From Syntrophobacterales bacterium (GTDB taxonomy: Bacteria; Desulfobacterota; Syntrophobacteria; BM002): a stretch of DNA of 64,000 nt. The position numbers and the translations under genes are program-made. Shown piece after piece: positions 12,215 to 16,596 of this stretch. Each line of letters starts with the position of its first letter. The first letter of the stretch is position 1. The notes below the pieces were generated by a model. It ran no database searches. It was not told the DNA's origin and was given only the letters and a program-made list of their open reading frames with translations. Where the stretch lies: the NCBI GenBank assembly GCA_050124835.1, contig JASFEM010000004.1, positions 3,588 through 67,587 on the forward strand, given 5' to 3'.

Positions 12215-12778
12215 ATGATAGAAATCCGCTTCCATGGACGTGGCGGTCAGGGCACGGTCGTGGCCACAATTCTCCTGGCAAAAGCCTTTTTCCAGGACGG
12301 TTACTACGTGCAAAGTTTTCCTCTCTTTGGGGTTGAGAGGCGCGGGGCTCCGGTTGAGGCCTATCTGCGACTTGATCGCAAAGAGATCCTGATTAGGACC
12401 AACGTCTACACCCCAGACCATGTGGTTGTGCTCGATGATACCCTCCTTGAAGGTGTTGACGTCACCTTTGGGTTGAAACCAGGTGGTTGGATTTTGCTTA
12501 ACAAGCCATCTCCTCCGGCCGATCTGGAACCATTCGCCGGCTTTAAGCTCGCCTTTGTTGACGCCACTCAAATCGCCCTAAAAAATGTGCTGGGAACTCG
12601 TACCCATCCCATTGTCAATACAGCGATGATGGGTGGTCTTGCCCGCGTTTTGGGCATGCCCGCAATGACTGCCATAGCGGGGGCCATCCGTAATGAGGTG
12701 CCAAGTAAGCCGAAAGCAAACATAAAGGCAGCTGAGATGGCTTACAAGCGAGTCAGGGTGCTGGAGGCTAGCGAATAG
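12215..12778 (+). CDS. porG: pyruvate:ferredoxin oxidoreductase gamma subunit
   Basis: The N-terminus IEIRFHGRGGQGTVVATILLAKAFF is diagnostic for PorG. Confidence 0.8.
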   Translation: MIEIRFHGRGGQGTVVATILLAKAFFQDGYYVQSFPLFGVERRGAPVEAYLRLDRKEILIRTNVYTPDHVVVLDDTLLEGVDVTFGLKPGGWILLNKPSPPADLEPFAGFKLAFVDATQIALKNVLGTRTHPIVNTAMMGGLARVLGMPAMTAIAGAIRNEVPSKPKANIKAAEMAYKRVRVLEASE

Positions 12779-12792
12779 CGAGAATAAAAAAT

Positions 12793-14562: not shown

Positions 14563-15728
14563 AGGGAAGCCACGCCGTCGCAGAAGCGGTGCGCTTGGCC
14601 AGAGCTCAGGTGATATCCGCTTACCCCATAACCCCACAGACCCATATTGTGGAGCGGCTCTCAGAATACTGTGCTGACGGCACCTTGGATGCGAGGTACT
14701 TGCGGGTGGAGAGTGAACATTCAGCCTTGGCTGCTCTAATAGGTGCCGCCAGCAGTGGGGTGAGGACCTTTACCGCCACTTCATCCCAGGGGTTGGCCTT
14801 GATGCATGAACTTCTCCACTGGGCCTCGGGAGCAAGACTTCCCATTGTCATGGCGGAAGTGAACCGAGCCATGGCCCCAGGCTGGAATATTTGGGCCGAC
14901 CAGACCGATAGTCTGGCCCAGCGCGACACAGGCTGGATCCAGCTATACTGTGAAGACGGCCAGGAGGTTCTGGACACCACCATCCAGGCTTATCGCCTGG
15001 CCGAATGGGTTAACTTGCCAGTCATGGTAGTCCTGGATGCCTTCTTCCTCTCCCACACCTATGAACCTGTGGATGTCCCTGATCAAGAAGCCGCCGACCG
15101 GTTCCTACCGCCCTATCAACCCAGGTTTATGCTGGATCTTGAAAATCCCTGCGCTTTCAGCCAGCTGGCTCCTCCCAACATTTATATGGAAATGCGCTAC
15201 AACATTCAAACAGCCATGGATGAATCCTTGGCCTACTTCGACCAGATGGAAACTGAATTCGAGGGGATTTTCGGCCGGCGTCACGGTGCGGTTGAGGCAA
15301 TCCAGTGCGAGGACGCAGAGGTCATTCTGATTACCTCCGGAACGGTGACCAGTACCAGTCGGCAGGTCGTCGCTGATCTACGCCACAAAGGTGAAAAGGT
15401 TGGACTCTTGAAAATCAAACTTTTCCGCCCTTTTCCACTGAGTCGAATCAGGGAGCTTACTGGGACCGCCAGTAAACTTGCGGTCATCGACCGCAATTTT
15501 TCCTTCGGTGCCAGCGGCATCTTTGCCCAGGAAATACGGGCGGCTCTTTGTAATCTTCCCGCACACCCCCCAGTCTATGGTTACATTGCAGGACTTGGTG
15601 GTCGTGATGTTACCACAGAGGTCATAGAGAATATTTATTACCTCACGAAGAACAGTACGGCTCCCCAACAGGAGAGCGTCTGGGTGGGGCTCCACGAGGT
15701 AAATCATGCAATTGGACACCCTAGATAG
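14547..15728 (+). CDS. porA: pyruvate:ferredoxin oxidoreductase alpha subunit
   Basis: [32 protein letters not shown] is the canonical PorA start. GGGGAGGA at 14532-14539 is a good RBS for the ATG at 14547, 16 nt inside the upstream gene. The ORF track extends further upstream in frame. Confidence 0.8.
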   Translation: [393 protein letters not shown]

Positions 15729-16596
15729 AGAATACATGTATTCGGGACATGTCGGCTGCCCAGGCTGCGGTGCCGCCATCGCCATGCGCTTCCTTCTTAA
15801 AGCTCTCGGTGATAAGACAATCATGATCATTCCAGCCTGCTGCTGGTCCATCATTGCCGGGCCCTACCCCCAGTCGACTCTAAAAATTCCGGTGCTCCAC
15901 ACCGCCTTTGAAACCGGGGGTGCCGTAGCCAGCGGCGTTCGGGCTGCCCAGGATGTTAAAGGGGACACTGAGACCACCGTGGTCACTTGGGCAGGAGATG
16001 GCGGCACCTTCGATATCGGGTTCCAAGCACTGAGTGGCGCCGTTGAACGCAACGAGAACTTCATCTACGTCTGCTATGACAACGAAGCCTATATGAATAC
16101 GGGCGTGCAACGCAGCTCCTCTACCCCCTACGGCGCCTGGACCACCACTACACCGGGCCAGCACTGGAAAAGATTGCGCAAGAAAAATATCGTCGAAGCC
16201 CTGGGGGCTCACCGTATTCCTTACGCCGCCACGGCTTCCATCGCCTTCCCGGAAGATCTGGTTCGCAAGACCCAGAAGGCAAAGGGTATGACCGGGTCCA
16301 GATTCATTCATATCTTTTCCAGCTGCCCCACCGGCTGGGGTATGCCATCGGAGATGTCAGTCAAGATTGCACGAATGGCGGTTCAGACGAACATCTTTCC
16401 CCTCTATGAGGTTGAGAAAGGCACTCGCTATACCATAAATTACACCCCAAAAGGTTATCTGGTGAACGAATACTTCCGTCTCCAGGGCCGCTTCAAACAT
16501 TTGACCGAGGAGGATCTTGAAGAGATTCAGCAGATGGTCGATGAGGACTGGAAGCTGCTGCTCCGAAAGGCGGGGGTTTCACCAGAGATGATTTGA
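15706..16596 (+). CDS. porB: pyruvate:ferredoxin oxidoreductase beta subunit (TPP-binding)
   Basis: The cluster-ligand cysteines GHVGCPGCGAA and the TPP-binding GDG motif (WAGDGGTFDIGF) are present. Confidence 0.8.
   Translation: MQLDTLDREYMYSGHVGCPGCGAAIAMRFLLKALGDKTIMIIPACCWSIIAGPYPQSTLKIPVLHTAFETGGAVASGVRAAQDVKGDTETTVVTWAGDGGTFDIGFQALSGAVERNENFIYVCYDNEAYMNTGVQRSSSTPYGAWTTTTPGQHWKRLRKKNIVEALGAHRIPYAATASIAFPEDLVRKTQKAKGMTGSRFIHIFSSCPTGWGMPSEMSVKIARMAVQTNIFPLYEVEKGTRYTINYTPKGYLVNEYFRLQGRFKHLTEEDLEEIQQMVDEDWKLLLRKAGVSPEMI

Follow-up and report, generated by a model that had tools for sequence, protein, structure and literature searches.

We identified, in a 64,000-nucleotide stretch of the genome of a Syntrophobacterales bacterium (GenBank assembly GCA_050124835.1, contig JASFEM010000004.1, positions 3,588 to 67,587 of the forward strand), a por gene cluster whose delta subunit, PorD, is almost certainly interrupted by an inserted flavoprotein module that is itself circularly permuted. 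The whole stretch is called the window below and is numbered from its first nucleotide. The gene concerned encodes a 589-aa protein, and the enzyme to which it belongs would probably pass electrons from a 2-oxoacid directly to NADP+. An original prediction had described the cluster as four genes of the pyruvate:ferredoxin oxidoreductase (PFOR) type, with a long gene in the porD slot encoding a delta subunit fused to a GltD-like oxidoreductase, the N-terminal 450 residues resembling GltD or PreT. Pfam and NCBIfam domain assignments of all four proteins bear out the PFOR-type cluster, the long gene does occupy the porD slot, and the domain content of the fusion was named correctly. The order was not: a splice test places PorD on both sides of the inserted module, the first ~40 residues are a PorD arm, and the module is permuted relative to GltD, NfnB and PreT.

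By Pfam and NCBIfam, Fer4_20 spans residues 40-119 of the 589-aa protein, Pyr_redox_2 starts at residue 135 (strongest over 135-378, while the alignment with NfnB continues to residue 431) and Fer4/PorD occupies residues 526-583. The three domains are those proposed beforehand; a PorD arm in front of them had been missed. The NCBIfam model NF009410 (PRK12771, 'NAD(P)-binding protein') matches from end to end, over profile positions 25-565 of 566, with 482.5 bits, slightly short of its curated cutoff of 516. Residues 1-40 alone match positions 13-39 of the PorD_Arch profile, and the arm carries the TGxWRxxRP motif of PorD. The alignment with NfnB begins at residue 41, and the stretch that precedes it, ...NKTGTWRFLRPQYEEK, resembles the N-terminal arm of PorD. 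At the other end of the protein, the core cysteines are C532/535/538/542 and C563/566/569/573.

We joined residues 1-40 to residues 532-589 and compared the product with a solved PorD and with PorD family models. The spliced PorD aligned with that of the Methanosarcina acetivorans PFOR (9bt4_G) without a gap over residues 7-80 of 85, scoring 72 bits where the C-terminus alone scored 43. Splicing raised the PorD_Arch score from 57.6 to 91.1 bits, and against TIGR02179 (cutoff 60.05) the spliced protein passed with 81.4 bits whereas the C-terminus alone failed with 56.8. Since the two halves align gaplessly and pass the cutoff once joined, PorD is split between its arm and the first Cys of the first CxxCxxCxxxCP motif. 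The alpha, beta and gamma subunits of the cluster each qualify as members of the pyruvate/2-ketoisovalerate oxidoreductase (POR/VOR) family as they stand, and the delta subunit does so only after its two halves are spliced. The por cluster contains no separate porD gene.

The inserted module has Fe-S, FAD (G140xGxxG) and NADP(H) (G269GGNTA, Y292RR) domains and then a linker, which ends in a permuted helix and C526xxC529. This last segment, residues 492-531 (...ERLQSFGEINLKIGASLAIREAERCFNC), aligns with the extreme N-termini of NfnB (4ylf_B, residues 14-42) and of NfnI-L (5jca_L, residues 8-47), and in 9n5u_A, 9bov_A and 8oh5_C the equivalent segment likewise comes after the flavin domains. When residues 492-531 were placed before residue 41, the Fer4_20 match grew from 28-110 (72.0 bits) to 2-110 (96.0 bits). 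Among sequences in the PDB, the best match was the large subunit of Thermococcus sibiricus NfnABC (9n5u_A, 287 bits), followed by that of Caldicellulosiruptor saccharolyticus NfnABC (9bov_A), and further by StnC (8oh5_C), NfnB (4ylf_B) and NfnI-L (5jca_L). The nearest relatives of the module are thus NfnB and the NADPH module in the large subunits of Stn/NfnABC. A plain N-to-C fusion was dropped as a description after the splice and de-permutation tests.

The ligands of the Fe-S clusters fit this architecture. In NfnB, the distal cluster is bound by C39, C42, C47 and C100 and the proximal cluster by C51, C90, C96 and E117 (PMC7596348). Mapped onto the module, these become C526, C529, C44 and C95 for the distal cluster and C48, C87, C91 and E110 for the proximal one, so that the 589-aa protein has every ligand that four [4Fe-4S] clusters require (15 Cys and one Glu). 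The distal cluster is drawn from both ends of the insert because the module is circularly permuted, and its ligands C526 and C529 end two residues (G530, I531) before C532, the first PorD ligand. Across a set of 108 sequences reaching down to 32% identity, C44, C48, C87, C91, C95, C526 and C529 are invariant, as are the eight cysteines of the PorD core, and at least 90% conservation was found for E110 and for the arm residues T27, G28, W30 and P35. C83 is equivalent to NfnB Cys86, which is not among the ligands given in PMC7596348, and accordingly it is not invariant. Also conserved are the motifs for FAD (G140xGxxG) and for NADP (G269GGNTA). Y292-R293-R294 is the counterpart of NfnB Y310-R311-R312, which grips the 2'-phosphate of NADPH (PMC7596348), and shows no variation in 14 sequences with identities of 59-77%. 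By these features the module is an NfnB-type subunit with two [4Fe-4S] clusters (seven Cys and one Glu), FAD and a YRR-type NADPH site, in a permuted primary structure.

Structure prediction with AlphaFold2, run on the 108-sequence alignment, gave a single compact fold (pLDDT 94.4, pTM 0.92). This run superseded one from a 14-sequence alignment, which had reached a pLDDT of 57.7 and was poor in the Fe-S parts. Foldseek ranked 9n5u_A, 9bov_A and 8oh5_C first (TMq 0.71-0.73), with NfnB after them.

The long protein is not confined to this genome. A protein search returned hundreds of full-length homologues (~585 aa) at 59-98% identity from metagenome-assembled genomes (MAGs) of Deltaproteobacteria, Syntrophobacterales and Nitrospirota and from Desulfacinum infernum, some of them labelled '2-oxoacid:acceptor oxidoreductase delta subunit' in IMG. 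The family is widespread and already has an NCBIfam model, under an uninformative name. Among representatives at 50% identity there are 3766 relatives at E <= 1e-30, and at least 88 of the best 150 of these share the architecture, as judged by length, an N-terminal PCxxxCP and a six-Cys junction motif. Some relatives extend it. Three longer ones of ~750 aa (P0159, P0166 and P0182) have, by Pfam, PorG joined in front of the module and a C-terminal Fer4, and two IorA-like proteins, P0242 (1131 aa) and P0257 (991 aa), combine TPP_enzyme_C, the module and Fer4, with POR_N in addition in P0242. These arrangements suggest that the module is a reusable, general 'NADPH plug' for several families of 2-oxoacid oxidoreductase.

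A scan of one genome per species yielded 35 loci, which we then compared by tblastn with the five proteins of the window. The order regulator-porG-long gene-porA-porB is found in practically all deltaproteobacterial loci with sufficient flanking sequence (about 30), and the carriers of this five-gene unit belong to Syntrophales, Syntrophobacterales and Desulfacinum. The order porG-long gene-porA-porB recurs at ~40% identity in one Hadarchaeota archaeon, one WOR-3 bacterium and one unclassified MAG. Clustering of the flanking open reading frames (ORFs) across the 35 loci showed that the five genes alone are conserved together, and no neighbour beyond them pointed to a substrate or pathway. The DNA of the window itself is 95-98% identical to the MAG 'Deltaproteobacteria bacterium bin40' (CP070735.1). 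We looked for a link to Sfum_2792-95, the abundant catabolic 'PFOR' of Syntrophobacter fumaroxidans, and found no S. fumaroxidans-named match among the best 120 relatives of a Syntrophobacter-MAG orthologue. In the Hadarchaeota locus (L023, positions 4075-5043 and 8910-10856), a second GltD-like gene lies just 5' of porG, and the PorB match falls in two pieces with ~1 kb between them, so that an insertion or an assembly problem is suspected.

In the window, porG, the 589-aa gene, porA and porB all lie on the plus strand and are closely packed, with gaps of 14 nt or overlaps (Table 1). The ORF of porA is open from further upstream, and the gene is likely to start at the ATG at 14547, because orthologue matches in related loci begin at that Met. 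Its 5' end then overlaps the split porD gene by 16 nt (14547-14562), and the 5' end of porB overlaps porA by 23 nt (15706-15728). These overlaps are consistent with translational coupling of the subunits. PorB scores 407.9 bits with NF008818, over the cutoff of 405, and its GDGG...NE motif and Cys18/21/45-46/207 can be read off the sequence. An XRE-cupin regulator had been proposed directly upstream of the cluster, and the HTH_3 and Cupin_2 matches agree with this. An orthologue of it stands immediately 5' of porG in 28 of the 35 related loci, and the protein has only a weak likeness to PuuR (57.6 bits against a cutoff of 211). The region 5' of the regulator, at ~11375-11420, contains the palindrome TTGCTCAAGCAA and two copies of AAGCAAAC as a candidate operator; no 8-mer is common to the equivalent upstream regions of the 28 related loci.

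Table 1. Features of the por cluster, of the split porD gene and of the cyclic di-GMP (c-di-GMP) genes, in window coordinates.
Feature	Positions	Strand	Evidence
XRE-type helix-turn-helix (HTH) and cupin regulator	11520-12122	+	HTH_3 50 bits, Cupin_2 55 bits (Pfam)
porG, gamma subunit, POR domain, 187 aa	12215-12778	+	PF01558 120 bits; TIGR02175 198.3 bits (cutoff 81.1)
Split porD with inserted flavoprotein module, 589 aa, single ORF	12793-14562	+	NF009410 482.5 bits
PorD N-terminal arm, residues 16-40, PCSYLTTESNKTGTWRFLRPQYEEK	12838-12912	+	PorD_Arch match, splice alignment
Inserted circularly permuted NfnB/GltD-like module, residues 41-531 (491 aa)	12913-14385	+	
Permuted segment, residues 492-531, equivalent to the NfnB N-terminus	14266-14385	+	Alignments to 5jca_L and 4ylf_B
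PorD 2x[4Fe-4S] core, residues 532-589 and stop	14386-14562	+	PorD_Arch and TIGR02179 matches
porA, alpha subunit, likely start (ORF from 14478)	14547-15728	+	POR_N 245 bits, PFOR_II 100 bits
porB, beta subunit, 296 aa; thiamine pyrophosphate (TPP) site and proximal [4Fe-4S]	15706-16596	+	TPP_enzyme_C 72 bits
c-di-GMP genes	10071-11225; 20771-22069; 22886-25051; 38434-38907	+; -; -; -	

The analyses above establish the gene order, the insertion, the permutation, the fold and the conservation of the cofactor ligands and of the NADP motif; by which route and in which direction electrons run, where they end and which 2-oxoacid supplies them we infer from these. With respect to the substrate, PorA matches the alpha subunit of the M. 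acetivorans PFOR (9bt4_B) with 364 bits and an identical 11-residue motif, and PorB matches 9bt4_C with 254 bits and an identical DNEAYMNTG stretch. The YPITP substrate motif is present in PorA as YPITPQT, and the positions that we take to be Arg114, Ile123, Ile843 and Asn996 of the Desulfovibrio africanus PFOR are conserved in the alignments. In addition, PorA, PorG and PorD have their top scores against pyruvate models. The enzyme is a four-subunit oxidoreductase of the pyruvate/2-ketoisovalerate family, for which pyruvate is the most likely substrate and branched-chain 2-oxoacids are possible.

It is rather probable that electrons pass from the 2-oxoacid to NADP+ directly, without soluble ferredoxin. 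Direct exchange with NAD(P)(H) is best supported because the FAD and NADP(H) motifs, including YRR, are conserved and the ligands of four clusters are complete, and because the closest solved relatives are NADPH-input modules and the 2-oxoglutarate:NADP+ oxidoreductase of Azoarcus evansii has a subunit of the GltD/NfnB family. The cofactors predicted for a protomer are TPP, FAD and five [4Fe-4S] clusters, of which PorB would hold one and the PorD core and the module two each. TPP would decarboxylate the 2-oxoacid, and single electrons would travel from the PorB cluster through the PorD clusters to the distal and then the proximal cluster of the module, where FAD would gather two of them and reduce NADP+. 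The net reaction would be 2-oxoacid + CoA + NADP+ -> acyl-CoA + CO2 + NADPH. The distal cluster of NfnB is the most likely binding point of ferredoxin (PMC5861303); the PorD core, which is ferredoxin-like, would here be placed covalently at the module cluster where free ferredoxin would dock in NfnB. In StnC, the same module serves as an NADPH port onto a linear Fe-S wire and has 'lost the ability to bifurcate' (PMC10482914). DsrL, an NAD(P)H:acceptor oxidoreductase whose domains follow the same order, is a further precedent (PMC7596348).

Several observations weigh against this reading. YRR varies across the family as a whole, so that some members may use NAD. Both PorD clusters are retained, and the one away from the insert could still serve ferredoxin, in which case NADP+ would perhaps not be the sole acceptor; loss of coupling to ferredoxin is not implied by the sequence. 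The FAD of NfnAB bifurcates with crossed potentials, and the sequence is silent on how two successive low-potential electrons would be handled here. Coupling a -500 mV donor to NADP+ also wastes energy, which would be odd for syntrophs living near thermodynamic limits. As for pyruvate, PorB gives its top score to a model named for the VOR beta subunit (407.9 bits against 362.9 for the PorB model).

The retained PorD clusters leave room for a three-way hub, in which the free PorD cluster would serve ferredoxin and the flavoprotein port NADP+, electrons from the 2-oxoacid being divided between the two and the same wire doubling as a built-in ferredoxin:NADP+ oxidoreductase. We consider this unlikely. 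C532, next to which the insert joins, is the first ligand for one of the two PorD clusters, taken here to be the median one of the D. africanus PFOR, presumably leaving the distal cluster free, and the eight Cys of both clusters are fully conserved. The ferredoxin domain of PFOR is also surface-exposed (PMC5020499). However, the sequence gives no sign of the distal PorD cluster remaining open to solvent once the complex is assembled, and the conserved five-gene unit comes without a ferredoxin gene. A module that retains the bifurcating chemistry of NfnB and couples 2-oxoacid/acyl-CoA, ferredoxin and NADP(H), through a partner encoded elsewhere or the free PorD cluster, is very improbable; it might act, for example, as an NADPH-driven bifurcating pyruvate synthase or as a confurcating 2-oxoacid oxidase. 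Such an enzyme would represent a new class of flavin-based electron bifurcation, with a TPP catalyst at its base. Less probable again is flavin bifurcation or confurcation of the NfnB kind with a high-potential, NfnA-like partner encoded elsewhere, in which NADPH would drive acyl-CoA carboxylation or, in reverse, 2-oxoacid oxidation together with NADH would reduce NADP+. E110, the Glu that binds the proximal cluster, is kept, as it would be in such an enzyme, but it also occurs in non-bifurcating relatives and is hence undiagnostic. The closest solved relatives by sequence and by fold are NfnABC-A and StnC, and the module in StnC is non-bifurcating (PMC10482914). Neither the window ORFs of 150 aa or more nor the unit conserved across the 35 loci included an NfnA-like gene (with [2Fe-2S], FAD and an NAD site).

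We give even less credence to an enzyme running in reverse, in which NADPH would support anabolic synthesis of pyruvate (or another 2-oxoacid) and no bifurcation would take place. The 2-oxoacid:ferredoxin oxidoreductases are reversible in principle and the carriers are strict anaerobes, some with autotrophic relatives, but the unit encodes no coupling partner, and on established thermodynamics NADPH, at about -320 mV, cannot by itself power an uncoupled reaction at about -500 mV. There is next to no chance that a sequencing error has run two genes together into the long one, or that the long gene is an unrelated DsrL/GltD-like neighbour of the por genes. DsrL does have the same overall domain order (PMC7596348); against both possibilities stand the one continuous frame, seen in this genome as in hundreds of homologues, the architecture shared by at least 88 of the best 150 representatives at 50% identity, the presence of both PorD halves in a cluster that has no other porD, the gene order fixed across phyla, and the relatives in which PorG is fused to the same protein. 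The gene had been predicted to be one uninterrupted ORF, and so it is, with neither frameshift nor stop. Its intactness, the full-length homologues and the 35 loci in the same order exclude a two-gene or frameshift artefact.

Direct transfer to NADP+ by way of a split PorD can be set beside several known systems. The M. acetivorans PFOR (9bt4) has the same gene order, gamma-delta-alpha-beta; the delta subunit here differs in being interrupted by the 491-aa FAD/NADP(H)/2x[4Fe-4S] module, and the predicted acceptor is NADP+ instead of, or besides, ferredoxin. With NfnB the module shares the cofactor ligands and the YRR NADPH motif. It differs in that the N-terminal helix and CxxC come after the flavin domains, that there is no NfnA partner, and that the covalent PorD core would supplant ferredoxin as substrate. 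StnC (8oh5_C) and subunit A of NfnABC (9n5u_A, 9bov_A) are the top matches in both sequence and fold and are permuted in the same manner, with EAxRCxxCG after the flavin domains. In those proteins NuoG/FdhF-like domains are fused to the module, which supplies a bifurcating core of the HydBC type, whereas the module described here lies inside PorD and would pass electrons to a TPP enzyme or receive them from it.

2-Oxoacid oxidoreductases that use NAD(P) and have an extra flavoprotein are already known, for example the A. evansii 2-oxoglutarate enzyme (Ebenau-Jehle et al. 2003) and the phenylglyoxylate dehydrogenase PadEFGHI. In the A. evansii enzyme the flavoprotein is reportedly a separate subunit on a two-subunit enzyme of the KorAB type. 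This enzyme, too, oxidises a 2-oxoacid and reduces NADP+ by way of a GltD/NfnB-family subunit, which falls in the same clade as NsoC (PMC10134865). PadEFGHI is a POR-family enzyme that reduces pyridine nucleotides, and the Pad gamma, alpha, beta and delta models match the subunits here, but the scores are 145-293 bits against Pad cutoffs of 300-700. In Pad, unlike here, the delta subunit is free and the flavoprotein forms a subunit of its own, and the Pad flavoprotein model is not among the best 25 of the 81 NCBIfam matches of the 589-aa protein. DsrL, an NAD(P)H:acceptor oxidoreductase whose DsrL-2 form also has YRR (PMC7596348), shows an N-terminal Fe-S part, FAD/NAD(P) domains, a ~100-aa linker and a C-terminal 2x[4Fe-4S] part in the same order as here. 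DsrL partners DsrAB, however, and the protein here adds the PorD arm. The DsrL survey left out homologues linked to genes for pyruvate or ketoisovalerate:ferredoxin oxidoreductase (PMC7596348), and the present protein falls outside DsrL as so delimited (a dsrAB organism, no POR/VOR linkage), its gene lying inside a por cluster. In the literature covered, which lies mostly outside subscription journals, we found no paper describing the split PorD, the permutation or the activity, and neither a review of Nfn (PMC6405883) nor the Pelobacter genome paper mentions such a fused delta subunit.

Other genes of the window were noted in passing. Upstream of the cluster, at 1809-8977 on the plus strand, are an Opp/Dpp-type peptide ABC transporter (SBP_bac_5, two permeases and two ATPases) and a class-V aminotransferase. 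These might hint at amino-acid catabolism, but in other genomes the por cluster occurs without them. A small ORF at 9363-9902 (plus strand) encodes five tandem repeats of the DRRSG type (RRKRGDRRSGIDRRSGKDRRSGADRRSGEDRRVG) followed by a HisKA dimerisation domain without an ATPase domain, and lies directly 5' of an HD-GYP response regulator at 10071-11225 (plus strand). Genes related to c-di-GMP are unusually many in the window, with three HD-GYP (HD_5) proteins (REC-, GAF- and HAMP-GAF-linked) and one PilZ protein. The G+C content falls to 0.395 at 38001-40000, against ~0.50 in the rest of the window, and this part could be of foreign origin or an intergenic region rich in AT.

In conclusion, the permutation puts both ends of the module at its electron port, so that it can be inserted in a loop of a ferredoxin domain, which would turn docking into a covalent wire. 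As a plug for 2-oxoacid oxidoreductases, the module may also find use in enzyme engineering. The genes of split-porD clusters merit re-annotation, including those in the single Hadarchaeota and WOR-3 genomes. Metabolic models built from the genomes of sulfate reducers and syntrophs routinely count each por cluster as a supplier of reduced ferredoxin, pyruvate oxidation in Syntrophobacter being an example (PMC3570798, PMC5947623). If the proposed transfer to NADP+ is true, electrons and energy would have to be budgeted anew for many uncultured Syntrophales, Syntrophobacterales and Desulfobacterales.

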